From assembly GCF_000092465.1 (NCBI RefSeq), contig NC_014205.1:300001-332000 (forward strand): a stretch of DNA of 32,000 nt, given 5' to 3'. Numbering within the stretch: the stretch's first letter is position 1; the number at the start of each line of letters is the position of its first letter. Below the pieces are notes generated by a model. The model was given only the letters and a program-made list of their open reading frames with translations. It was not told the origin of the DNA and ran no database searches. The DNA comes from Staphylothermus hellenicus DSM 12710. Lineage in GTDB: Archaea > Thermoproteota > Thermoprotei_A > Sulfolobales > Desulfurococcaceae. Both the position numbers and the translations under genes were made by a program. Below, piece after piece: positions 2,033 through 32,000 of this stretch.

Positions 2033-2449
2033 TTGAAAGTTTATACACGTGAAATAGTTCTATCAACAAATAAGAAGTTCCAACTAGTAGATATTACTTA
2101 TGAAGTTGAGAAAATCGTTGAAGATAGTGGTGTTAAGAACGGAATTGCCCTTGTTTTCGCACCCCACGCTACAGCGGCAATTATAGCTAATGAGCATGAA
2201 TCAGGTTTGATGGAGGATATAATTACTAAGATCAAAGAGTTAACAGAGCCTGGTAGTTCTAAGTGGAAACATAATCTCATAGATGATAATGCTCATGCTC
2301 ACTTAGGCTCTGCCCTGATTGGGGCGGATCGGGTTTTTCCAGTTATTAATGGTAGGCTGGTTAGGGGGACTTGGCAGAATATTTTTCTCGTAGAAATGGA
2401 TGGCCCTAGATCTCGTAGACACGTTATTGTAACTGTTATTGGTGAGTAA
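2033..2449 (+). CDS. YjbQ/UPF0047 family protein (secondary thiamine-phosphate synthase-like)
   Basis: 138-aa ORF with family hallmarks [27 protein letters not shown] and [21 protein letters not shown] start, preceded by a GGGGTAGG Shine-Dalgarno-like run. Confidence 0.85.
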
Positions 2450-2453
2450 AACT

Positions 2454-3629
2454 ATGAGACTATATGTTGCAAGTGAGAAGGAAATAGTAGATGGCGCTGT
2501 ATCTGATATATATTTTGTTAGAACAACTAGGATTCTCAGGGAGAAAGGTGTTCGTAGAAAGGTTAGAATGGAATACCACACAACCAGTCTCCCCAAAGGA
2601 TATGAGTGGGCGGTTTATGCGGGTCTAGAAGAGATCTTGTATGTTTTAAAAGATAAGCCTGTTACAGTATATAGTTTACCTGAAGGCACATTATTCAAGC
2701 CTGGAGAACCCCTCTTAATCATTGAGGGCTACTACGATGATATAGCAGTTTATGAAACGGCTCTCCTAGGAATTATGAGACACTATACTAGTATCGCTAC
2801 TAAGGCTGCCCGTATGAAGAGATTAGCAATAGATAAAACATTATTATTCTTTGGATTAAGAGCTCTTCACCCAGCACTCGCACCCATGGCTGATCGAGCG
2901 GCATATATTGGAGGCTTAGATGCTGTATCTGGAGCTATAAGTGAGAAATATCTTGGATTAAAACCTGTTGGAACAATGCCTCACGCATTAATAATAGTAT
3001 TCGGTGACCAAGTAAAGGCTTGGAAAGCATTTGACGAAGTTGTAGAGGAAGGTGTTCCCAGAATAATGCTTGTAGATACTTTCTGTGATGAAAGAATGGA
3101 GTCATTATTAGCGGCTAAAGTATTAGGTAAGAAACTATATGGTGTGAGACTAGACACGCCTAGTAGTAGAAGAGGAAATATGAGGAAAATTGTTGAAGAA
3201 GTAAGATGGACACTAGATATTCATGGCTATAAACACGTAAAAATAATTGTTAGCGGGGGTATAGGCGAGAAAGAACTTGTAGAATTGAGAGATATAGTTG
3301 ATTCATTCGGTATAGGCACATCTATATCTTTCCCGAAGAGCATCGATATAAGTGCAGATATTGTTGAAATATATGATAATGGTGAATGGATCCCTGTATC
3401 GAAACGTGGAAAACTGCCGGGAGCTAAACAATTATATCGTAGAAGACCAGGCCTAAACGATTATATTGGATTACTAAATAGAAGCACTCCTCCCTCACCA
3501 GACTATAAACCATTACTTAAAAAATATATTGACAACGGTGAATTAATAGAGAAACTACCCAGTATTCAAGAAATAAGAAACTATGTACTAGAACAATTAA
3601 GGGAAGTGCCTGAACCAGAACCTGTGTAG
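2454..3629 (+). CDS. pncB: Nicotinate phosphoribosyltransferase (archaeal ~390-aa type)
   Basis: Type II PRTase barrel motifs [14 protein letters not shown] and [18 protein letters not shown], similar to archaeal NAPRTases. ATG 2454 lies 5 nt after the yjbQ stop. TTG 2439 is an alternative start. Confidence 0.85.
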
Positions 3630-4647: not shown

Positions 4648-5112
4648 ATGCCATATATACGTGTTGGATTAACAGAGTCAATAATAGATGTGGATTCAAT
4701 AGTTAATGAGCTAATAGAGCATACAAAAGGTCTTGGAGGTGCTATAGTTTCATTTATTGGATATGTTAAAGGCATAGTTGATGATCATAGAGTTTACGAA
4801 CTACAATATACTGCTTATCAACCATATACGGAGGAGGTTATGGAGAAGATAGTTGTGGAAGAAGTTCGTAGAAACAATTTATTGGGTGCTATAGTTATTC
4901 ATAGAATAGGTAATCTAAAACCAGGAGATCCAACAATCTATATCTTTGTATCAGCTAATACTAGGAAAGAAGCTTTCAAAGGAGCATCAGAGATTCTGGA
5001 AAGAATAAAACATGAAGCACCGATCTTCAAGCTTGAAAAAAGAGATGATGGCGAATACTGGGTCATCGGTGATGGTAGAAGAGTTGCTAGGAGAAGAGCC
5101 AAGAATACTTGA
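4648..5112 (+). CDS. moaE: Molybdopterin synthase catalytic subunit MoaE
   Basis: GAIVSFIGYVKG, HRIGNLKPGDPTIYIFVSANTRKEAF and IKHEAPIFKLE are typical MoaE blocks. The gene is adjacent to moaD. Confidence 0.9.
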   Translation: MPYIRVGLTESIIDVDSIVNELIEHTKGLGGAIVSFIGYVKGIVDDHRVYELQYTAYQPYTEEVMEKIVVEEVRRNNLLGAIVIHRIGNLKPGDPTIYIFVSANTRKEAFKGASEILERIKHEAPIFKLEKRDDGEYWVIGDGRRVARRRAKNT

Positions 5113-6076
5113 TCATTTCTACTTGCTTCTTAAAAACTACTGTTACGCAGTCGTAGTAGGAAATATGCATTCAAATAGTTTTTTAATTGGATATGTAAAG
5201 TATTGTTTAGGGAAAAATAGTATTTGGAGAGATAATCTAGGATACTATGATAGAATAGTTAACTATTATTCTCCAAGAAAAGTATATGATTCAACTCCCT
5301 GGAAAACATATATACCTTGCTACGATTCCATCATCCCAGTTATTCCCAGATCAAAAATTATTAAAATATTTAATCCAATAAATAGATTAAATGAAATAAT
5401 TTCTATGCCAAAGGATCAATTGGAACAATTAACAGCTAATCTATCAAGCATACTGTATTCGTCCATTCACAGATATGCTTTAGGAGTAACAGGATCTTTA
5501 CTTATCAAAATACATAACCCGGTTATCAGCGATATAGACATGATTGTCTATGGTTGGAGAGAATCTCTAAACATAATAGAGTTTATTAATGAAAACAAAG
5601 ACGTTTTCCCCGGTTTTACAGGGGAGAGATTGAAAAGGTGGATTTACAGCAATGCGGAATCCTCAGGTCTTCCTCCCAGTAAGGTGGAGAAACTGTATCG
5701 TAGGTGGCGTAGAGGATCATTTATGGGGAGAGATTATTCAATAATATACAATAACGGCGTCTTCAAACATTTAGATACTTGTAAAGCATGGAGAACAATT
5801 GGGCATATAACAGTAAAGGCGTACTTGATGGGCGGATTAGATGCTCTAAATTATCCGTCAAGATCAAGTATAGATCAATACTACCTAGTTAAAAACAGGG
5901 AGGAGCTGCGCAGCGATATTGAATACGTTTTATCTTTTGACGCATTATATATTGGAAAACTATTTGACGGGGGCTGGGTAATTATTAGTGGTTTATTACA
6001 GCATGAACCTTTAGAGGATAGGTATAGAATACTTGTTGGTGGCAGGGAATATAAGGGATATATTGAGCCTCTATGA
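5072..6076 (+). CDS. Pol-beta-superfamily nucleotidyltransferase, conserved-archaeal type (COG1665-like), start uncertain
   Basis: The minimal NTase signature GVTGSLLIKIHNPVISDIDMIVYG (G-S ... D-x-D; the DID codons are at 5531-5539) sits mid-protein, followed by a beta-rich C-terminal region. Possible starts are 5012, 5045, 5072 and 5165. The first three overlap the moaE 3' end. Confidence 0.6.
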   Translation: MVEELLGEEPRILDHFYLLLKNYCYAVVVGNMHSNSFLIGYVKYCLGKNSIWRDNLGYYDRIVNYYSPRKVYDSTPWKTYIPCYDSIIPVIPRSKIIKIFNPINRLNEIISMPKDQLEQLTANLSSILYSSIHRYALGVTGSLLIKIHNPVISDIDMIVYGWRESLNIIEFINENKDVFPGFTGERLKRWIYSNAESSGLPPSKVEKLYRRWRRGSFMGRDYSIIYNNGVFKHLDTCKAWRTIGHITVKAYLMGGLDALNYPSRSSIDQYYLVKNREELRSDIEYVLSFDALYIGKLFDGGWVIISGLLQHEPLEDRYRILVGGREYKGYIEPL

Positions 6077-6687
6077 GAGGGACGGCTTATATGGTATCAA
6101 AAATACTAGCTATTTCAAATATTAATGGTAGAGAAGATCTTATCCCATACATTGTTTACCTTGCTAGTACCGAAAAAATCGATATAGTATTGTTTTGTGG
6201 AAACATTGTTTCTCCACTAATTATAGAGGAGATAAGTAAAAGAATAAAGGGCCGCGTACTCGGAGTTGCGGGTAATCTTGATGATCCCTCCGTGATAAAA
6301 ATGTTGAAATCTATTAATGGATTTATTGATGGAAGAATAGTTGAGGTATATGGATTAAATATTGGTGGGGTAGGGTTTAATCCAGAGCTATCAGTTAATA
6401 GGTTGTTAAGGGAAAATAAGGATTTAGATATACTTGTTTCTTTTTATCCAAGCATAAAAGCTTCTATTAACAACGGTGTTGGCATGATTGATCGCTTGAT
6501 TAAAACATTACATCCTCAAATAGTAGTTTTTGGTAGAGGATATAGGAAATGCTTAGTTAATGACAAATATGTTTTTCCAGGCGAAGGCCATAAAGGCTTT
6601 TACGCATTGATCAAGCTTGGAAAAAAAGATTATGAAGCTAAAATATACTGTCGTCATTTTCAAGATGTTGTTATGGATAATTATTAA
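6073..6687 (+). CDS. Metallophosphoesterase-fold protein with metal ligands replaced (predicted pseudoenzyme)
   Basis: It aligns block by block with the active MJ0936-type enzyme at 37-552, but the ligands are substituted: SDSHD->SNING, GD->GN, GNND->GNLD, MHGY->SFYP and GHTH->GRGY. The ATG overlaps the upstream stop (ATGA). Confidence 0.6.
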   Translation: MRGTAYMVSKILAISNINGREDLIPYIVYLASTEKIDIVLFCGNIVSPLIIEEISKRIKGRVLGVAGNLDDPSVIKMLKSINGFIDGRIVEVYGLNIGGVGFNPELSVNRLLRENKDLDILVSFYPSIKASINNGVGMIDRLIKTLHPQIVVFGRGYRKCLVNDKYVFPGEGHKGFYALIKLGKKDYEAKIYCRHFQDVVMDNY

Positions 6688-6726: not shown

Positions 6727-7608
6727 ATGATATTGTTTGATTGGGGAACATATAATGCATTAAACACTTTAACTAAAGCTGCAGTACTTGGAATGAGACT
6801 AACAGAAATACCTCCACGGGATTTTTCAAGGAAAACTAGGGGTTTAGACTATTTTGAAGCTTACCGTGATTTTGCAACTAAAGCATTTACAACAATCATT
6901 GCTCACGGTCCATACTATAATCTAGTTAGTGATCATCCTGAGATCGCTAAACGTATATTGAAAGCTATGAGAGCAGCTGTTAAAAAAGCAGCTATGGCAG
7001 GAGCTTCTATATTCAATGTTCATCTTGGTTGGAGGGTATTTATGGATGATAGAGATTTGGAAGCAGTGGCTGATATGGTTAAGAAAATGTTGGAGGTTGC
7101 TCCTGAAAACATGTATATTAGTTTAGAAACAACCTATACTCGGAGACAAATAGGGAGTCTAGATGAAATTAAGTCGATTATAGAGATGGTCGGTAGTGAT
7201 AGGGTTATTCCAAGTGTTCAGCTAGAAAACATGTTCATGTATGAGACAAGAATTGATCAACATGGAAACTTTATTCAGGCTGATAAACAAGTCAACAAAG
7301 ACTTCTGGCTCAATGTACTGAGAAAAACACTTGAAATTAGCAAGGGGTATTTAAGCCTTAGATTCAGCCAGGTAACCGGTGTCTATTTCGGGAGGAGACT
7401 GCTTAAAAAGAGAACCCCGCTAGGTAAAGGTTATCCAAGCATACAACCGTTAGCAGAGGCATTGGCTCAATTCATGGTTAGAGAAGTTAGAGATAAAGGA
7501 TTATCCCTTAAAATGCACATAATATATACAGGTCCCCCGGAGACAAAATATGAGGATACAATAGATCTTTATGCATCGATTATGAGGAGAGTTGTTCAAT
7601 ACATATAA
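6727..7608 (+). CDS. Xylose-isomerase-like TIM-barrel protein (AP endonuclease family 2 / EndoIV-like)
   Basis: IIAHGPYYNLVS, ASIFNVHLGW and ISLETTY resemble the first three metal-ligand strands of endonuclease IV / sugar-phosphate isomerase TIM barrels. The C-terminal half is less recognisable. Confidence 0.55.
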   Translation: MILFDWGTYNALNTLTKAAVLGMRLTEIPPRDFSRKTRGLDYFEAYRDFATKAFTTIIAHGPYYNLVSDHPEIAKRILKAMRAAVKKAAMAGASIFNVHLGWRVFMDDRDLEAVADMVKKMLEVAPENMYISLETTYTRRQIGSLDEIKSIIEMVGSDRVIPSVQLENMFMYETRIDQHGNFIQADKQVNKDFWLNVLRKTLEISKGYLSLRFSQVTGVYFGRRLLKKRTPLGKGYPSIQPLAEALAQFMVREVRDKGLSLKMHIIYTGPPETKYEDTIDLYASIMRRVVQYI

Positions 7609-7655
7609 TAATCCATAAAATAATTATTTTTACACCAATCCACTATCCTATACTT

Positions 7656-9506
7656 GTGTGTAGAAAATTGACTGGTTTTAATCTTAAAGTAAAGCCGAGA
7701 GACTATCAAATAGAAGCTGCTAAGTGGGCATTATCAAACAAAAGATCAACAATTGTTATGCCTACAGGATCAGGTAAAACATTGATAGCAGTTTTATTCA
7801 GCAAAGAGCTTTTGGAGAAGAAGCTTGCAAATAAAGTGCTCGTATTAGAACCGACAAGAATACTGGTAGAACAAACGGCTCGATACTTTGAAAAAACACT
7901 AGGTATTAAAGCACTATCTATACATGGACGGTATCCGCCGGAGAAAAGAATCGAATTGTGGAGAAAAGCCAAAGTTGCTGCTGCAACACCTGAAACAGCA
8001 TTAAATGATGTAAAACAAGTTATCCAGAACAACTATGATGCAATAATTGTTGATGAATGCCATCACACAACCGGAAAAGATGCATATGCCAAATTCATGA
8101 AAATAACAGAAAAAGTTTTCAAGTGGAGACTAGGATTATCAGCTCATATCCCTAAATCACGCAGACATGAAATAGAAAGGTATATTGGAAAAATACGGAT
8201 ATGGAGCTGGGCTGATGAGAGAATAAGAAAGTATGTGCCTGATTGGATCGGTGAAATATATGAAGCAGAACTTAACGATGCTGAGAAACAAGTTCTAGAG
8301 GGGCTCGAGGAGGCAAGACTGGAATATACTGGTAAGTATAGAGGATTAGTAAATCTAGCTATTAGGTGGTTTGTAAGGGATGGAGCACTTGCTCTTAGGG
8401 AAAGCTTAGAGAAAGAAACACTGCTAGCGTCTATACTATCACATATTAAGCCCATGCTTGAAAACAGAAAGGTTAGGCCTTTACATAAACTAGATGCTTT
8501 GAAAAGGGTGCTAAATGATCATGAAGGCTTTAATAAAGCAATCATATTCGTTGATAGAGTTATTGTTGCTGAGTATCTTGGAAAGAAGCTAATGCATTAT
8601 AATCCCGTAATTATCGTTGGTAAGACCAGGTTAGGAACGGATCTTAGAGAGGTATTGAGGAGAGCGCATAGTTCGGAAACAAGAATAGTAGTTTCTACAA
8701 GTGCTGGTGAAGAAGGAATAGATCTTCCAGAAGCAGATCTACTTATAATATGGAGTAATGTAGCTAGCCCGTTAAGGTTTATTCAAAGACATGGTAGAAT
8801 ATTAAGGCTAACAGGGAAGAAGGGATTAAAATTTGTGGCATACATTGCTACACCCGATACACCAGACATGGATAGTTTATTGGATGCATTAGAGCTTGCT
8901 AGAAAGAATGGTGTAGATGTTCCTATCGATGAAGAAACATTAGAGGCTCTTTGGAGAAGAACCACGAGAAATAGGATACTAAGTGTTTTATCCGGGAAAC
9001 CAATGCCTCTTGAATGGATTAGTGAAATTACTGGTATGCCCAGAGACCTTGTTGAGAAAGCTATTAAGAGGTTGGAGGATAAGGGACTAGTTATATACAT
9101 ATATACCTTCCTAGGTAAAACCTATGCATTAGTAGATGACCTGTTTATTCTCAAAGAAAACTTTGAAGAATACTTAACCCCTGATACAAGCTTGGCAGCA
9201 AGAATTAAGCCATATGTGGAAAATAAGGAGTTAAGAATGGTTTCTGGCACTTATAACCAGGTTATAACAAAGCTTATTAGGCTTCTTAGAAGATACGGAG
9301 AATTCACAAGGATCTCGGCATCCCTACAAATACCCTTAGAAACAGGGGCTTTACAACAAATAATGCTTCACTATACTTTTCGGATCAATAATGAAGAAGT
9401 CCTTGAAGCTATAATAAGAAACATTTATTCAGCAAGCAAATACTATAGATTCATCACTAAGACACCCTGGCCTAGTAATAATGCTGAACATTATGGTGAA
9501 TCATAA
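7656..9506 (+). CDS. SF2 helicase, Hef/FANCM/MPH1-like core (COG1111-like) with C-terminal winged-helix and unknown tail; no nuclease domain
   Basis: Motif I is VMPTGSGKT, motif II is DECHH, motif III is LGLSAH, then STSAGEEGIDLPEADLLI and motif VI QRHGRILR. The N-terminal lobe closely resembles euryarchaeal Hef (PRDYQ..PTGSGKTLIA..VLVLEPTRILV..AKVAAATPET). A helical insert lies between the RecA lobes. A wHTH-like segment spans about aa 436-492 (nt 8961-9131). GTG start. Confidence 0.85.
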   Translation: MCRKLTGFNLKVKPRDYQIEAAKWALSNKRSTIVMPTGSGKTLIAVLFSKELLEKKLANKVLVLEPTRILVEQTARYFEKTLGIKALSIHGRYPPEKRIELWRKAKVAAATPETALNDVKQVIQNNYDAIIVDECHHTTGKDAYAKFMKITEKVFKWRLGLSAHIPKSRRHEIERYIGKIRIWSWADERIRKYVPDWIGEIYEAELNDAEKQVLEGLEEARLEYTGKYRGLVNLAIRWFVRDGALALRESLEKETLLASILSHIKPMLENRKVRPLHKLDALKRVLNDHEGFNKAIIFVDRVIVAEYLGKKLMHYNPVIIVGKTRLGTDLREVLRRAHSSETRIVVSTSAGEEGIDLPEADLLIIWSNVASPLRFIQRHGRILRLTGKKGLKFVAYIATPDTPDMDSLLDALELARKNGVDVPIDEETLEALWRRTTRNRILSVLSGKPMPLEWISEITGMPRDLVEKAIKRLEDKGLVIYIYTFLGKTYALVDDLFILKENFEEYLTPDTSLAARIKPYVENKELRMVSGTYNQVITKLIRLLRRYGEFTRISASLQIPLETGALQQIMLHYTFRINNEEVLEAIIRNIYSASKYYRFITKTPWPSNNAEHYGES

Positions 9507-10121
9507 TTGGTTTCCATTATAAGCATTGAAGATTTCATGAAATTAATAAGGAATTATAAATCAATATCCATGATTATTGGTTCAGGACTAGAATATTCTT
9601 TAGGTCTTAGCGGATTCTATGATTACAAACCTGCTAGACAGAAAATCATAAATGAAAACATTATTGTTAATTGTTCATCGCTTAATAAGAAGGTGCTTGA
9701 AATAATTAATTTATTTACTGAAACATTAAAAAGTGATCGTTTCCAATCAGCTATAATTACAAGCCCATACTGTCTATATAGATGCATGTGTGATCAAGAA
9801 AAATTGTTGAAAGACAAAATTATTCCGCTCATCGGCTGTTTTAAATGTAGTGATTGCTGCATAGACGAGCCAGAATATAAGGGATTAGGTGAAAAAGTTA
9901 ATTATAAATCACTAGCTAGAAGCATTGTCGAGGTTACTTCTGCTGAAGCCCTTATAATCACTGGCTTCACACCTACTCTATCCCCAGCGAACATGTTGCC
10001 GTTAATAGCTAAATTCGGTAAGCCAAAGATATTCTTAGTAGATACATTTAATAACCCATATATTTCTATTGTCGACTACTATGTTGAAACACCAAGTTAT
10101 AAGCTGTTTAAGGTTCTCTAG
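9507..10121 (+). CDS. Sir2-fold protein lacking canonical catalytic/NAD-binding residues (predicted inactive sirtuin homolog)
   Basis: 204-aa ORF. IIGSGLEYSLGLSGFYDY, AIITSPYCLY, IIPLIGCFKCSDCC and LIITGFTPTLSPANMLPL..KIFLVD follow the order and spacing of the sirtuin blocks GAGIS..GIPDFR, ITQNIDxLH, ELHG..CxxC and viGTSl.V.PA..L...iiN. TTG 9507 directly follows the helicase stop. ATG 9537 is an alternative start. Confidence 0.5.
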   Translation: MVSIISIEDFMKLIRNYKSISMIIGSGLEYSLGLSGFYDYKPARQKIINENIIVNCSSLNKKVLEIINLFTETLKSDRFQSAIITSPYCLYRCMCDQEKLLKDKIIPLIGCFKCSDCCIDEPEYKGLGEKVNYKSLARSIVEVTSAEALIITGFTPTLSPANMLPLIAKFGKPKIFLVDTFNNPYISIVDYYVETPSYKLFKVL

Positions 10122-10465
10122 GAAAATAGCTTATAACAAAAACTATTTTGATAATCATAGATGTATTTCCCGCATAAAAACCGGGTCTTTAATGAAAACA
10201 TAGAATTATGGATAAGTAGTAAATTAGTTACCGATAAGCTATGAAACAGGTTTAGGTAATAGTTAAGATTATAATTGTTGATGATGGCGTATTAGAGCCT
10301 TAATGTTCTTTCTATGTCTTAATCACGGGTAGCTCTAGAGATAATAGGAAATACACATATATCTAATAATGTATATGAAAACTATAACCTTAATATATAG
10401 AAACTCTATCAATACGATTTAGATATATACATGTGTTAATATTGGAGCGTAATTGGTGACAAGCC

Positions 10466-11869
10466 GTGGCAAACAATAATAGTTTGAAACCCTTGTTCGA
10501 GCCTAGAAGTATTGCGGTTATAGGGGCTAGTAGGAGTCCAGGCAAGATTGGTCACACTATTATGAAAAACATTATTGAATATGGCTATAAAGGTAGAATA
10601 TACCCTATAAACCCTAAAGCTGACAAGATACTTGGCTATAAAGCATACAAGTCCGTTCTTGAAGTGCCCGACGAGATAGATATGGCAATAATAGTTGTTC
10701 CTGAACAAATTGTCCTGAAAGTTGCTGAGGAATGTGGTAGGAAAGGTGTAAAGGTACTAGTTGTTATCGCGTCTGGTTTTAGCGAAGTAGGAAATATTGA
10801 GGCTGAGAGAAAACTTGTCGAAATAGCACGTAGGTATGGTATGAGGGTTCTTGGACCAAATATTTTCGGAATAACATATACTCCTGCAAAATTGAATGCA
10901 ACATTTGGTCCAAAAGATGTTCTCGAGGGTCCTATAGCATTCATTACGCAAAGCGGTGCTTTAGGAATAGCATTAATGGGATGGACGATAATGGAGGAGA
11001 TAGGCATATCAGCTCTTGTCAGTATGGGTAATATGGCGGATATAGATGTAATAGATGTTTCCAAATATTTAGCCGGCGATCCAAATACTAGAGTCATAAC
11101 AATTTATCTTGAAGGACTGAAACCTGGTACTGGTAGAAAATTCATTGAGGAAATGAAGAAAGTTACAGCGAAGAAACCGGTAATCGTAATTAAGGCTGGT
11201 AGGAGCAAACGCGGAGCAGCAGCTGCTGCAAGCCATACTGGGAGCCTGGCTGGAAGCGATAATTTATACCAAGCAGCATTCAAGCAAGCAGGAATAATTA
11301 GAGCATATACTACAGAGGAAATGTTTGATTGGGCTAGAGCATTTGCTTCACAACCATTACCTCGAGGCGAAGAAACAATTATTATTACGAATGGTGGAGG
11401 AGTAGGTGTTTTAGCAACTGATGCAGCCGAGGAACACAATGTTAAATTATTAGATCCCAGCCCTGAGCTTAAGGAGAAATTCAAGAAGGCTATGCCATGG
11501 TTTGGCAGTGCTAGGAACCCTGTTGATTTAACTGGTCAAGCTATTGTTGAAAACTATGTGGAAGCGTTAAGAATAGCGTTTGAATCCGGTGAAATCCATA
11601 ATATCATATTGTTATATTGTAGAACAGCTATTCTCGATCCCAGAGACTTAGCGAAAGCCGTTATTAAACTATATGAAGAATACAAAGAAACCAATTATAG
11701 TAAACCATTGGTTGCAGGATTTGTCGGCGGAGAAGATGTTCGGGAAGCGGTCAGGTTGTTGAATAAGAATGGCATACCTGCTTATCCAAGTGCTGAGAGA
11801 GCTGTAGCTAGTATAGCTAAAATGATCTGGTATATGAGGTATCTTAATAAAATAAAGTCTAGGAAATAA
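10466..11869 (+). CDS. acdA: Acetyl-CoA synthetase (ADP-forming), alpha subunit
   Basis: N-terminal CoA-binding domain (LFEPRSIAVIGASRSPGKIGH), a succinyl-CoA-ligase-like domain, and the phosphohistidine loop AAAASHTGSLAGS. GTG start. No beta subunit is adjacent. Confidence 0.9.
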   Translation: MANNNSLKPLFEPRSIAVIGASRSPGKIGHTIMKNIIEYGYKGRIYPINPKADKILGYKAYKSVLEVPDEIDMAIIVVPEQIVLKVAEECGRKGVKVLVVIASGFSEVGNIEAERKLVEIARRYGMRVLGPNIFGITYTPAKLNATFGPKDVLEGPIAFITQSGALGIALMGWTIMEEIGISALVSMGNMADIDVIDVSKYLAGDPNTRVITIYLEGLKPGTGRKFIEEMKKVTAKKPVIVIKAGRSKRGAAAAASHTGSLAGSDNLYQAAFKQAGIIRAYTTEEMFDWARAFASQPLPRGEETIIITNGGGVGVLATDAAEEHNVKLLDPSPELKEKFKKAMPWFGSARNPVDLTGQAIVENYVEALRIAFESGEIHNIILLYCRTAILDPRDLAKAVIKLYEEYKETNYSKPLVAGFVGGEDVREAVRLLNKNGIPAYPSAERAVASIAKMIWYMRYLNKIKSRK

Positions 11870-30333: not shown

Positions 30334-31863
30334 TTATTTGTTTAAGTATGTCTTCATATGAACCTCTAAAGGATTGTTTATTGTATAGTTTAGAGCTTTT
30401 ATAATGTTCATTGGTGAAACAGTTTTCTTCTGATGTAGAAGATGGTCTCCCACTAATCCATTAATGTATGCTCCTATACATGCGGATATGAATGGATTAT
30501 TAGTTTTAGCCAGCATAGATGCAACTATACCTGTTAGAACATCTCCTGTTCCACCGATTGACATGTATGGATTTCCTGTTTTGTTAAGCTTTGTTTGATG
30601 CCCATTACTTATGATGTCTATTGGTGCTTTTAGAAGGATAGTGGCGTTTAGTGTTTTAGCGGCTTCAACTACTTTTTCTACATCCTCTGCGGGTTTCCCG
30701 GATAAAGTTATATTTGTAAATGCTTTGAATTCTCCTCTATGAGGGGTTAGGACTGTTTTTCCATTAAACATTGTTTTTCCATATTCTATAGTGCGTAGTG
30801 CATCAGCATCTATTACGAGACTAATGTTTTTCTTCAGTAATTCATCAATAATCTTCTTAGCTGCTTCGAGTGTTTCAGGTAATCTGCCAAGACCAGGACC
30901 TATGACCACTACATGTGGACGTACCTCCACAATATATTCCAGAATGGTTTCAACATGTCTTGGCTCCAAGTATTCACCATTATAGGGGAGCGTTATTAGC
31001 TCTGGTGAGTATGATGCTATAATTTTTCTTACACTGCTCGGAACTATTATAAAAGCTAGATCAGATCCTGCCTCTAACGCGGCAAGGCCTGATAGGGCTG
31101 GTGCACCAGTAAATCTGTAGCTTCCACCTATAACCACTATTTTCCCAGCCATCCCCTTATGAGTATCTGGTTTACGTGGAGGAATACTGTATAAAACATC
31201 TCCCGGCCCAACATATGTTTGTGCATCCGGAGGAATACCAATATTTGCAACAACTATTTCACCAGTTATATCAGGTTTTTTTAAGAGACCGAGTTTAACA
31301 TCGTGGAATGTTACAGTGATATCTGCTTTGAAAGCTACTCCATGGATCTCGCCGGTATCAGGATTTAAGCCTGTAGGAGTATCTATTGATACTTTAAGCC
31401 TTGCACTAGTCTTATTTGCTTCTTCAACAAGTGTTTTTATAGGTTCTCGAAGAGCGCCCTTAACTCCTGTCCCTAATAATCCATCAATTATTACACCAGC
31501 ATCTCTAATAGGATCAATAATTCCCGGTTTATGAATAGTTATTGAGTTCATTCTAGAAACTATTTGGTAGTTTTCACGAGTATCCGGGTGATTAATTAGT
31601 TCAGGTCTATATGCTGGAACGATTTCTACATGGTAACCCTTACTGGCTAGGTATCTTGAAGCTACTAGTGAATCGCCGCCATTTCCGCCTCTACCCATCA
31701 GTACAACTATTTTTCCAGCCTCCTTTGGAGATATGCGCGAAGCAATTGTATCAGCTATGCTTTTACCAGCAGCCTCCATTAACCTAATGAGAGGAATACC
31801 TAATCCGATAGTGTTTGTTTCAAGAATTCTCATCTCATTAACTGTTATAACCAAGGAGATCAA
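30334..31863 (-). CDS. nnr: Bifunctional NAD(P)H-hydrate repair enzyme Nnr (YjeF_N epimerase + ADP-dependent dehydratase)
   Basis: YjeF_N blocks are EMRILE...LMEAAG and GRGGNGGDSLVASRYL. The carbohydrate-kinase-like C-terminal domain shows KGMAGKIVVIGGS..FTGAP, VIDADAL and GGTGDVLTG. The track ORF extends to TTG 31944. The family N-terminus favours TTG 31863 or 31854, or ATG 31833. Confidence 0.9.
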   Translation of the reverse strand: MISLVITVNEMRILETNTIGLGIPLIRLMEAAGKSIADTIASRISPKEAGKIVVLMGRGGNGGDSLVASRYLASKGYHVEIVPAYRPELINHPDTRENYQIVSRMNSITIHKPGIIDPIRDAGVIIDGLLGTGVKGALREPIKTLVEEANKTSARLKVSIDTPTGLNPDTGEIHGVAFKADITVTFHDVKLGLLKKPDITGEIVVANIGIPPDAQTYVGPGDVLYSIPPRKPDTHKGMAGKIVVIGGSYRFTGAPALSGLAALEAGSDLAFIIVPSSVRKIIASYSPELITLPYNGEYLEPRHVETILEYIVEVRPHVVVIGPGLGRLPETLEAAKKIIDELLKKNISLVIDADALRTIEYGKTMFNGKTVLTPHRGEFKAFTNITLSGKPAEDVEKVVEAAKTLNATILLKAPIDIISNGHQTKLNKTGNPYMSIGGTGDVLTGIVASMLAKTNNPFISACIGAYINGLVGDHLLHQKKTVSPMNIIKALNYTINNPLEVHMKTYLNK

Positions 31864-32000
31864 CCCTATAATCTCGTCTATATATATCTTATTCCATACG
31901 ATTCCTATATAGAAGCAAATATATAATGATATACTTCGCAGCAAATTCTTATTGATAATGAAAATACATGTTAAAACTAGATATTTATTGATCTATTTTT

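Follow-up and report, generated by a model that had tools for sequence, protein, structure and literature searches.

A gene encoding a protein of 204 amino acids was analyzed in the window (the whole 32-kb stretch of DNA under study). The protein is a genuine but shortened sirtuin relative. The DNA is from Thermoprotei, order Desulfurococcales. The protein is probably a pseudo-sirtuin, i.e., the positional ortholog of the CobB-type deacylase Sir2 found in this order, in which NAD-dependent catalysis has been lost, and we assign a probability of about 70% to this reading.

Results

Coding region and start codon

In the original prediction, the open reading frame was placed at 9507 to 10121 with a TTG start abutting the stop codon of a helicase gene, and both are present in the sequence: the TTG at 9507 lies directly 3' of the helicase TAA (9504–9506). 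The GGTGA sequence upstream of the TTG is found in identical form before the start in locus L002, and other G-rich purine motifs of a similar kind are present in L001, L009, L010, and L016. An ATG is located at the equivalent position in the ortholog P0003 (65% identical), and residues 1–21 are conserved in both P0003 and L002. In the AF2 model described below, residues 1–20 have pLDDT values of 92–94. The start at TTG 9507 is thus supported by the upstream GGTGA, the conservation of the N-terminus in P0003, and the high pLDDT of the N-terminal residues. Public gene calls start at the ATG at 9570 to give a protein of 183 amino acids (P0001), by which the N-terminal helix is clipped, and the short family is labeled as hypothetical. 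The direct abutment probably results in co-transcription or translational coupling with the helicase gene, in line with the co-translation originally proposed. A scan for promoters and terminators gave nothing beyond the level of shuffled sequences, and the consensus sequences used are bacterial and uninformative for an archaeon. The features are listed in Table 1.

Table 1 Positions of the Sir2-derived gene, its sequence features, and its neighbors in the window
Feature	Position	Strand	Remark
Metallophosphoesterase gene	6073..6687	+	In related genomes, a homolog lies directly before, sometimes overlapping, the full-length Sir2 gene
AP_endonuc_2 (xylose-isomerase-like TIM barrel) gene	6727..7608	+	Usual upstream neighbor of the helicase gene; forms a two-gene cassette with it
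SF2 helicase gene, 616 aa	7656..9506	+	Hef/XPB-like core and winged-helix region; upstream neighbor
Shine-Dalgarno-like GGTGA	9495..9499	+	7 nt upstream of the TTG, within the helicase gene at its 3' end
Sir2-derived open reading frame, 204 aa (stop included in span)	9507..10121	+	Open reading frame call, Sir2 homology, sirtuin fold, dN/dS 0.12
N-terminal 21 residues (strand and helix) omitted by public calls	9507..9569	+	Aligns with the Sir2 N-terminal helix
GSGLE, remnant of the GAGxS dinucleotide-binding loop	9579..9593	+	GxG kept, Ser replaced by Glu
YDYKPAR, family-specific, replacing the cofactor-binding loop (GIPxFRG...) of sirtuins	9618..9638	+	D39 and Y40 96%
Cys56, no counterpart in canonical Sir2	9672..9674	+	Invariant, 100% of 26 sequences
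TSPYCLYRC in place of TQNxDxLHxxAG	9759..9785	+	Cys89 and Cys93 invariant
Ile109 (ATC) in place of the catalytic His of sirtuins	9831..9833	+	Aligned with Af1 H116
CFKCSDCC, collapsed zinc module	9837..9860	+	hhalign; one Cys of the cluster invariant in the family
GFTPTLSPANMLP, corresponding to the GTSxxVxPAxxLP strand and loop of sirtuins, Rossmann core	9963..10001	+	G153 and P160 invariant, N162 96%
Asp190, corresponding to Asp of the C-terminal '(I)AD' motif of sirtuins	10074..10076	+	Invariant
Acetate-CoA ligase (ADP-forming) alpha gene	10466..11869	+	TIGR02717, 588.6 bits, above cutoff

Homology to sirtuins and predicted fold

The 204-aa protein used as a single sequence matches Sir2-Af1 in the PDB with an E-value of 7e-5 (phmmer), and the profile of the short family to which it belongs matches the same protein with 1.6e-11. 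A mixed profile of short and full-length sequences gives an end-to-end alignment with Sir2-Af1 (E = 1e-28), from which the residues were mapped. Comparison of the short family with the full-length Sir2 proteins of Desulfurococcales by hhalign gives a probability of 99.8% with an E-value of 1.6e-28. The CobB models of NCBIfam match residues 95–199 with an E-value of 7e-7 at scores far under their curated cutoffs (top score, 28.7 bits; cutoff, 320). Pfam SIR2 (PF02146), named in the original prediction as a check, itself gives no match to the 204-aa protein even at E ≤ 10. This Pfam model matches all five full-length relatives and none of the nine short-family members.

The AF2 model is template-free and derives from 11 sequences of the short family; its pLDDT and pTM are 86.2 and 0.86, respectively. 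In the Foldseek search of this template-free model against the PDB (best E-value, 1.2e-10), all 50 of the matches listed are sirtuins, with query TM-scores of 0.57–0.72. The predicted structure is a Sir2 fold composed of a Rossmann domain and a small domain, the latter being reduced. The profile alignments, hhalign, and Foldseek all point to sirtuins, as expected for the Sir2-fold protein that had been proposed.

The best matches in both sequence and structure are CobB-type class U/III sirtuins (Sir2-Af1 and Sir2-Af2 from Archaeoglobus fulgidus and Sir2Tm from Thermotoga maritima; PDB 1ICI, 1M2G, 4TWI, and 2H4F). They share the Rossmann core and the order of elements with the short protein, which also retains the GxG loop, the C-terminal Asp, and the strand-loop G(T/S)xxxxP. 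CobB-type sirtuins have approximately 245 residues, whereas the short protein has 204, with approximately 18 and 17–27 residues deleted, and scores below every curated family threshold.

Replacement of the catalytic and zinc-binding residues

Residues were assigned by hmmsearch against Sir2-Af1 and by hhalign against the full-length Sir2 proteins of Desulfurococcales. G20-A-G-V-S24 in Af1 is aligned with G25-S-G-L-E29, and Ser24 corresponds to Glu29, so that the computed alignments agree with the change of GAGxS to GSGLE noted originally. Gly25, Ser26, and Gly27 in this loop are found in 100%, 96%, and 96% of the 26 family members, respectively. The deletion of approximately 18 residues lies after YDYKPAR. 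Q98-N99-V100-D101 in Af1 is aligned with T85-S86-P87-Y88, and the Gln, Asn, and Asp residues of the nicotinamide-ribose pocket are lost. As for this segment, SPYC had been placed opposite QN.D; the replacement itself stands, while the register is off by one, the computed counterpart being TSPY.

The 204-aa protein contains no His and eight Cys residues, and the absence of His from the sequence leaves no candidate for a catalytic histidine. The assignment of Ile109 (codon 9831–9833) to the position of the catalytic His is in agreement with both the alignments and this composition, and neither His nor Asn occupies the catalytic positions in the computed alignment. In the hhalign result, C114-x2-C117 corresponds to the first CxxC of the zinc module, and the remainder of the ribbon (17–27 residues) is deleted together with the second CxxC; the module is collapsed as had been described, with only the first CxxC kept. 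Through the two deletions, the helical module is shortened and the zinc ribbon largely removed. It should be noted that in the local HMMER alignments, IPLIGCFKC falls opposite the second CxxC of Sir2-Af1, irrespective of whether the query is the single sequence or the profile of the short family. The gapped alignments via closer full-length relatives were preferred to these, and His is absent in either case.

Thus, the short protein differs from the CobB type in lacking Ser in GAGxS, Gln98, Asn99, Asp101, His116, and the second CxxC, and in possessing four invariant cysteines at new positions. The Asp residue of the '(I)AD' motif, whose counterpart is Asp190, is presumably an adenine contact in sirtuins. 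The possibility of an ordinary sirtuin was rejected, since the catalytic positions are all replaced, and the residue losses predict that NAD-dependent deacylase and ADP-ribosyltransferase activities are absent.

Range and conservation of the short family

The short family is defined by the two shared deletions, the motifs GSG...YDY...C...SPxCxxxC...C...G...P.N...D, and the four invariant Cys residues. Its members are unannotated, have 179–215 residues, and were found only in Desulfurococcales in the searches performed here; a genome scan with a closer alignment (A3) gave two loci, both from Desulfurococcales MAG. The short family is not described in the literature searched on inactive or pseudo-sirtuins in archaea, Sir2 of Desulfurococcales, and Sir2 with ADP-forming ACS. 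Gly25, Gly33, Cys56, Pro87, Cys89, Cys93, one Cys of the zinc remnant, Gly153, Pro160, and Asp190 are invariant in the alignment of 26 distinct members, and the 204-aa protein has all ten of these positions and both deletions. YDY, SPYC, and NPY are conserved motifs specific to the family.

The dN/dS value is 0.12 at an unsaturated dS of 0.71, compared with 0.03–0.13 for the neighboring genes, and the reading frame is intact in all 26 distinct sequences, the lowest identities among the members measured being 22–28%. The dN/dS value indicates purifying selection on the short family, and a chance open reading frame or a pseudogene was rejected on account of it and of the conservation.

The Sir2-like protein evolves much faster than its neighbors (41% identity versus 72–85% in the same genome pair), and one subfamily lacks the strand bearing the former His position. 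The fast divergence and the strand loss are equally compatible with slow decay and with a new function.

One explanation to be weighed is that Sir2 is no longer needed and that the reading frame persists at the tail of the operon as a functionless relic heading for loss. The stepwise loss of catalytic residues with accumulating deletions across the lineage, the divergence far above that of the neighbors, and the failure of Pfam to recognize the protein are all consistent with decay. However, the low dN/dS at unsaturated dS, the reading frame kept intact even in sequences with 22–28% identity, and the ten invariant positions, four of which are cysteines new relative to the canonical set, argue against it, as do the retained Shine-Dalgarno-like motifs and the fold confidently predicted from family covariation alone. 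We consider a relic unlikely.

Purifying selection would also be compatible with a protein that is still an enzyme, with a chemistry independent of the sirtuin His/Asn/Asp set, e.g., cysteine- or metal-dependent catalysis on the Rossmann scaffold. The four invariant cysteines, the CxxCxxC string in the subtype of the window protein, and the new motifs YDY, SPYC, and NPY could be taken in the same way. Contrarily, sequence searches of Pfam, NCBIfam, and the PDB detected no similarity to any non-sirtuin enzyme family. An entire subfamily has lost the CxxCxxC string, of which just one Cys is invariant, a pattern more in keeping with a structural site than with a catalytic cluster. Conservation is lowest at the positions that shape the active-site cleft in sirtuins. 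An alternative enzyme is therefore regarded as highly improbable.

Gene slot shared with full-length relatives

The closest relatives of the pseudo-sirtuin are the full-length Sir2 proteins of Desulfurococcales (P0012/P0022 and P0013–P0016; the hhalign comparison above). P0012/P0022 is WFO75058.1 from Desulfurococcaceae archaeon MEX13E-LK6-19. Unlike the short form, these proteins keep the full length and a cysteine-poor zinc-ribbon segment, and match Pfam SIR2. P0015 and P0016 are full-length proteins with the canonical motif set. In the other full-length proteins, GAGxS or Asn/His is already replaced (GSRIA and TTGVDC in P0013, ELSG in P0012, and EIYG in P0014). Hence, one gene slot is occupied by proteins in a range of states: those with canonical motifs, those of full length with the catalytic residues replaced, and those shortened by deletions.

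The full-length genes are in the equivalent slot directly upstream of the gene for acetate-CoA ligase alpha (ACS alpha), and three of the four loci also have them directly after the metallophosphoesterase gene. The order in L019, L020, and L021 is metallophosphoesterase, SIR2 (244–248 aa), and ACS alpha, while L017 has SIR2 and ACS alpha with no phosphoesterase gene. Acetate-CoA ligase alpha is the nearest same-strand downstream gene of every Sir2 or Sir2-like gene examined. ACS alpha shows 71–81% identity across the loci, and the metallophosphoesterases are homologous end to end. The upstream gene for a 354-aa protein is also present in L021. PDB sequence searches with this protein and with the metallophosphoesterase gave nothing useful. 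Among the short-family loci, L009 contains a 328-aa gene, a gene for a 205-aa metallophosphoesterase-like protein, the short Sir2-like gene, and ACS alpha. The ancestor was probably the usual housekeeping sirtuin of this archaeal lineage.

Adjacency to the helicase gene

The helicase and the dead Sir2 had been proposed to be a functional or immune pair. According to this explanation, the short protein would serve the upstream Hef/XPB-like helicase as a dedicated subunit or sensor, and the two would form a module that may be involved in immunity. The two genes are adjacent in every genome of the subclade possessing the cassette, down to 22–28% identity in the Sir2-like protein. In most of these genomes, the start of the Sir2-like gene directly adjoins the helicase stop or overlaps with it (0 nt in the window, a 16-nt overlap in L001, and 8-nt overlaps in L010, L012, L013, and L016), and the Shine-Dalgarno-like motif lies within the helicase gene near its 3' terminus. 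Such start/stop contact across the subclade is compatible with selected co-expression.

However, the helicase is absent from L009, where the Sir2-like gene is present, and from all four full-length relative loci looked up (L017, L019, L020, and L021), unlike in the locus studied here. The helicase orthologs are metagenomic (44–71% identical to the helicase of the window) and were regarded as informative when at least 700 nt of downstream sequence was available (n = 11). A downstream Sir2-like gene is lacking in 7 of these 11 (44–64% identical). L024, whose helicase is 64% identical, has no Sir2-like gene, and L025–L027 at 59–61% have one. Tight coupling to any upstream gene is a property of the locus rather than of the helicase, since the full-length Sir2 gene overlaps the metallophosphoesterase gene likewise in L019 and L020. 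The conserved adjacency is also little informative because the whole surrounding block is syntenic and of housekeeping nature. The comparison of neighborhoods suggested in the original prediction thus gave a divided result, adjacency holding within the cassette subclade and linkage being lost in L009.

The difference from the helicase-free loci is exactly one two-gene block, AP_endonuc_2 and the helicase, between the metallophosphoesterase and Sir2 genes. AP_endonuc_2 is located upstream in 9 of the 16 helicase ortholog loci. This block may be read as a local insertion. The helicase is probably a neighbor through this insertion, not a conserved partner of the Sir2-like gene, and the proposed pair is not supported. 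Together with the lack of a PADLOC match and of any defense or mobile-element family among the larger open reading frames scanned, these data make a role as a dedicated helicase subunit or sensor very unlikely.

Comparison with defense-associated SIR2 systems

PADLOC assigned no family to the 204-aa protein and none to its canonical relative P0016 either. None of the larger open reading frames scanned in the window matches a mobile-element or defense family, and the 32-kb window contains only housekeeping genes. The syntenic block around the gene includes those for MoaE, NAPRTase, ACS alpha, ThiI, TYW3, and D-aminoacyl-tRNA deacylase. Rfam and tRNA scans of the window detected no RNA family and no tRNA gene.

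In SIR2-HerA, DSR1/DSR2, ThsA, and SIR2-pAgo/SPARSA, a Sir2-fold gene adjoins an ATPase or helicase gene as in the locus studied here. The SIR2 domains in these systems are active NADases retaining the catalytic Asn and His residues (PMC11472057, PMC11514289, and PMC10981675). These domains fall into other SIR2 subfamilies and occur in defense islands, whereas the present locus shows conserved housekeeping synteny and its protein has no PADLOC match, catalytic Asn/His, or conserved helicase partner. A defense SIR2 was rejected on account of the absence of a model match and the housekeeping context.

Discussion

The short protein would no longer deacylate or cleave NAD. From the sequence pattern, Cys56, Cys89, Cys93, and one of Cys114 and Cys117 may form a rebuilt structural metal site, probably for zinc, and this putative site would anchor the reduced small domain to the Rossmann core. 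The short protein may survive as a non-catalytic binding or regulatory module, whose ligand might be an adenine nucleotide (NAD, ADP-ribose, or CoA) or a former substrate or partner of Sir2. The gene abutting the helicase stop would be co-expressed as the last gene of the operon, and the abutment does not point to a function specific to the helicase.

A more specific proposal, made tentatively and with rather low confidence, is a working pseudo-sirtuin, i.e., a small regulator that would sense NAD, ADP-ribose, or CoA, or bind substrates, remodeled after the loss of catalysis to have a rebuilt four-Cys metal site and a new YDY-x-P-x-R loop instead of the cofactor-binding loop. Its target might be the ADP-forming acetyl-CoA synthetase encoded next to it, or chromatin proteins and other former clients of Sir2. 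The alanine-dehydrogenase-like protein ADLP from Thermus thermophilus senses NAD+ and regulates CoA transferase (bioRxiv 10.1101/2025.10.31.685773). ADLP is a dead descendant of an NAD-dependent enzyme that keeps nucleotide binding and regulates an enzyme metabolizing acyl-CoA, and serves as an analogy for the proposed mode only. Its fold and family differ from those of the short Sir2-like protein, whose nucleotide binding and interactions are putative.

The finding explains the identity of the protein and is of moderate significance. It also provides a warning for annotation, as Pfam and gene callers miss the short family. In compact archaeal genomes, abutment with a helicase gene is weak evidence for functional or immune pairing.

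Sirtuins are normally treated as uniformly catalytic, and the biology of Alba and Sir2 was first defined in an order related to Desulfurococcales. The three Sir2 states in the slot provide a natural series from an NAD-dependent enzyme to a non-catalytic protein, and raise the question of how these hyperthermophiles manage protein deacylation. If the regulator reading is true, the short family would be, as far as we know, the first case of a conserved sirtuin without catalysis to be described from prokaryotes.

Sir2 descent and start of the short protein

The 204-aa product gave no Pfam match even at E ≤ 10, and NCBIfam CobB models cover its C-terminal half at E = 7e-7 with scores far under their cutoffs. 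A phmmer search of the PDB returned Sir2-Af1 at E = 7e-5. When 1.8 billion representative proteins were searched, a small family of 179-215 aa (the short family) came out first, followed by proteins of 244-248 aa; Pfam SIR2 matches all five of the longer relatives but 0/9 short members. Sir2-Af1 was also matched, at E = 1.6e-11, by a profile restricted to the short family, and hhalign aligned this family with the full-length relatives over residues 6-201 (probability 99.8%, E = 1.6e-28). The AlphaFold2 model, calculated from 11 short-family sequences with neither a template nor a canonical sirtuin in the alignment, has a pLDDT of 86.2 and a pTM of 0.86. All 50 matches listed by Foldseek against the PDB are sirtuins (best E 1.2e-10; query TM-scores 0.57-0.72), among them PfSir2A, Sir2Tm, Sir2-Af1/Af2, SIRT5, and SIRT6. 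The Sir2 fold put forward in the original prediction is thus recovered by profile searches, hhalign, and the AlphaFold2/Foldseek comparison, and these homology and model data indicate that the protein is a Sir2 derivative. The short-family profile (positions 89-198) also matched residues 102-216 of PDB chain 9t1s_L, an F420-dependent formate dehydrogenase, at E = 2.8e-5; this match may come from a common Rossmann-like or cysteine-rich segment.

The start codon should be noted. As had been read from the sequence, a TTG directly abuts the helicase stop codon. This TTG is favored over the downstream ATG, because a Shine-Dalgarno-like GGTGA lies 7 nt upstream, residues 1-21 are kept in the short orthologue P0003 (65% identical, with ATG at the matching position) and at the short-family locus L002, and the AlphaFold2 model is highly confident for the N-terminal strand and helix. 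The public gene calls P0001 (183 aa) and P0002 use the internal ATG and lose these 21 conserved residues, which form the N-terminal strand and helix. Genes of the upstream string are 0-47 nt apart, whereas the AT-rich gap before the acetate-CoA ligase (ADP-forming) alpha subunit gene (ACS alpha) reaches 344 nt. Rfam has no match in this gap, which presumably holds the ACS promoter.

Coordinates of the features discussed (window numbering)
Feature	Position	Strand	Remark
Nicotinate phosphoribosyltransferase (NAPRTase)	2439-3629	+	
MoaE	4648-5112		
354-aa protein gene	5012-6076	+	
AP_endonuc_2-helicase unit	6727-9506	+	two genes
SF2 helicase	7656-9506	+	616 aa; stop TAA 9504-9506
Sir2-like gene	9507-10121	+	204 codons; start TTG 9507
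N-terminal segment lost in public calls	9507-9569	+	P0001 begins at ATG 9570
Ile109 codon	9831-9833	+	ATC
Intergenic gap	10122-10465		344 nt
ACS alpha	10466-11869	+	
Bifunctional NAD(P)HX epimerase/dehydratase	30334-31944	-	

Loss of the catalytic residues

Residues were mapped through three agreeing gapped alignments (MAFFT, hmmsearch against Sir2-Af1, and hhalign). G20-A-G-V-S24 of Sir2-Af1 corresponds to G25-S-G-L-E29, Q98-N99-V100-D101 to T85-S86-P87-Y88, H116 to I109, and the first zinc CxxC to C114/C117. The predicted changes of GAGxS to GSGLE and of the catalytic His to Ile109 therefore hold, and both the ATC codon and the cysteine string C111-x2-C114-x2-C117-C118 are present in the sequence. 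Replacement of QN.D also holds, but the proposed SPYC is shifted by one position: TSPY is what the alignments place there. As for the suggested collapse of the zinc module, C114/C117 is the first CxxC, and the remainder of the ribbon (17-27 residues) is deleted. A second deletion of ~18 residues follows the cofactor-binding loop. The protein contains no histidine, so no other alignment could recover the catalytic one.

Of the defining sirtuin features tested, five are missing: the protein does not reach curated sirtuin family thresholds, has no Ser in GAGxS and none of the QNxD residues Gln, Asn, and Asp, and possesses neither the catalytic His nor the two-CxxC zinc ribbon. Residues for nicotinamide cleavage and general-base catalysis are thus missing in the alignments from a protein of Sir2 fold, which is a superfamily member by descent and should not be classed as a sirtuin enzyme.

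Conservation of the short family

Compared with the 83%-identical L002 orthologue, dN/dS is 0.12 at dS 0.71; neighboring genes give 0.03-0.13. G25, G33, C56, P87, C89, C93, one zinc-remnant Cys, G153, P160, and D190 are invariant in 26 distinct family members, and S26, G27, D39, Y40, S86, N162, and N183 are conserved at 96%. Divergence is nevertheless fast: in one genome pair identity is 41% between the Sir2-like proteins, but 72% between the helicases and 85% between the AP_endonuc_2 products, and ACS alpha is 71-81% identical even where Sir2 homologues share only ~23% between genomes. In P0010 and P0017-21, which make up one subfamily, the strand bearing the His position is gone as well. Such fast evolution and further deletions are consistent with a decaying relic, a reading contradicted by the dN/dS values and the invariant residues; the sequence comparisons argue for a constrained gene, not a pseudogene.

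Gene order around the Sir2-like gene

Short-family loci with context all belong to Desulfurococcales or hot-environment MAGs. Where the locus reaches far enough, the window and L001-L008 and L010-L016 share the order 330-354-aa gene, metallophosphoesterase, AP_endonuc_2, helicase, Sir2-like gene, ACS alpha, tRNA-binding-domain gene (opposite strand), ThiI, TYW3 (opposite strand), and D-aminoacyl-tRNA deacylase. Contrarily, L009 has neither AP_endonuc_2 nor helicase: a 328-aa gene and a 205-aa metallophosphoesterase-like gene are followed by the short Sir2-like gene and ACS alpha. Full-length relatives (L017, L019, L020, L021) lie upstream of the same ACS alpha gene, with no helicase at these loci. 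In L019, L020, and L021 a metallophosphoesterase gene is directly 5' of SIR2, overlapping it by 26 nt (L019) or 14 nt (L020); L017 has SIR2 and ACS alpha without the phosphoesterase gene, and in L019 a single opposite-strand gene separates the two. BLASTP shows homology among these loci for ACS alpha, for the metallophosphoesterase, and, in L021, for the upstream 354-aa gene.

A metagenome scan with the helicase alignment gave 16 loci with full-length orthologues (44-71% identical to the window helicase), 11 of which extend for 700 nt or more beyond the helicase. A Sir2-like gene follows the helicase in four of these 11 (L022, L025-L027) and unrelated genes in seven (L024, L028, L030, L032, L033, L034, L036). 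The L024 helicase is 64% identical to that of the window, versus 59-61% in L025-L027, yet L024 has no Sir2-like gene. AP_endonuc_2 is immediately 5' of the helicase in 9/16 loci. The proposal of a helicase paired with a dead Sir2 as a new system, whether as helicase subunit or immune pair, is contradicted by this synteny: the linkage is broken in L009, the full-length loci, and seven of the 11 helicase loci. Close stop/start coupling is seen with any upstream gene, and is therefore a property of the locus rather than of the helicase. The simplest reading of the gene orders would be an older arrangement of metallophosphoesterase, Sir2, and ACS alpha, with later insertion of an AP_endonuc_2-helicase cassette between metallophosphoesterase and Sir2 in one sublineage. 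In L014 (GCA_013154205.1, 5177-7001) the NCBI gene table lacks a helicase entry between the AP_endonuc_2 and Sir2-like genes, whereas one is called in L013, a JGI record with the same contig region, locus length, and gene coordinates; an annotation gap or pseudogene flag may be responsible.

This locus is not a defense locus. PADLOC models matched neither the Sir2-like protein nor its canonical relative P0016, and matched the helicase through generic SF2 cores only. The window carries RibD_C, YjbQ, NAPRTase, HAD, MoaE, ThiI, TYW3, a MoxR/DUF58 cluster, BtpA, a large S8 protease, and NAD(P)HX repair; no Rfam RNA family or tRNA gene was found in it, and no mobile-element or defense family among the larger ORFs scanned. 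Membership of the Sir2-like protein in a defense SIR2 family was ruled out.

Neighboring genes

Among solved structures, the helicase comes closest to the Hef helicase domain of Pyrococcus (E = 5e-26) and to XPB-II of Sulfolobus (E = 5e-24), so the label Hef-like is fair for its core. It carries a C-terminal winged-helix region, and the AP_endonuc_2 product is a xylose-isomerase-like TIM barrel, weakly Nfo-like. The two-gene unit recurs in varied genomic contexts (L023, L024, L028-L031, L033, L035, L037; helicase identity 44-64%). The genuine functional module would appear to be AP_endonuc_2 with the helicase, rather than the helicase with the Sir2-like protein, and it may be a pair for DNA repair.

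The 354-aa protein, found beside the metallophosphoesterase gene in L009, L010, and L021, has no Pfam, NCBIfam, or PDB sequence match; its GVTGS...SDIDMIVYG stretch resembles by eye a Pol-beta-type nucleotidyltransferase motif. Its true start is probably 3' of the annotated one, since BLAST alignments begin at residue 32, and the overlap with MoaE may be an artifact. In all four full-length loci, CoaBC and a gene for a GNAT acetyltransferase (177-184 aa, opposite strand) are situated 3-5 kb 3' of Sir2, close to its pair with ACS alpha; no GNAT gene was found among the annotated neighbors of the Sir2-like gene in the window or at the other short-family loci. This hints at an ancestral acetylation/deacetylation neighborhood. 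The window has two NAD-related housekeeping genes besides the dead sirtuin, NAPRTase and the NAD(P)HX epimerase/dehydratase gene. Of these, NAPRTase is syntenic in short-family loci but absent near the loci with full-length Sir2, and probably occurs here by coincidence.

Probable change from enzyme to pseudoenzyme

Full-length proteins that still match Pfam SIR2 have other residues at the key motifs: ELSG and TTSIDG in P0012/P0022 (L019; P0022 is WFO75058.1), EIYG and SADIAC in P0014, and GSRIA and TTGVDC in P0013 (L020). Catalysis therefore seems to have been lost before the deletions in this lineage. The window protein would no longer perform deacylation or NAD cleavage. Canonical Sir2 has no zinc ligand at the positions of C56, C89, and C93, three of the four invariant cysteines. 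The four may form a rebuilt structural metal site, probably for zinc, that would tether the shortened small domain to the Rossmann core. Alternatively, they could be joined in pairs as disulfides, bonds that occur commonly in hyperthermophilic crenarchaea. A less likely reading is a new enzyme with cysteine- or metal-based chemistry.

The protein retains the glycines of the dinucleotide loop, the strand-loop G153...P160.N162, and Asp190 near the C terminus, the counterpart of the last being an adenine contact in sirtuin-NAD structures. We propose that the protein would survive as a non-catalytic binding or regulatory module. An appealing idea is that it may regulate the ADP-forming acetyl-CoA synthetase encoded next to it, by analogy with ADLP in Thermus, an NAD-sensing pseudoenzyme regulating a CoA transferase (bioRxiv 10.1101/2025.10.31.685773). 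ADLP would be a precedent in kind.

The window protein resembles no demonstrated mode of action. Named database members of the short family are labeled "hypothetical protein", and we found no description in the literature of a conserved catalytically dead archaeal sirtuin or of this short Sir2-like family. The series that leads, at a single locus, from an enzyme to a probable pseudoenzyme is real, and both it and the putative rebuilt cysteine site can be tested.
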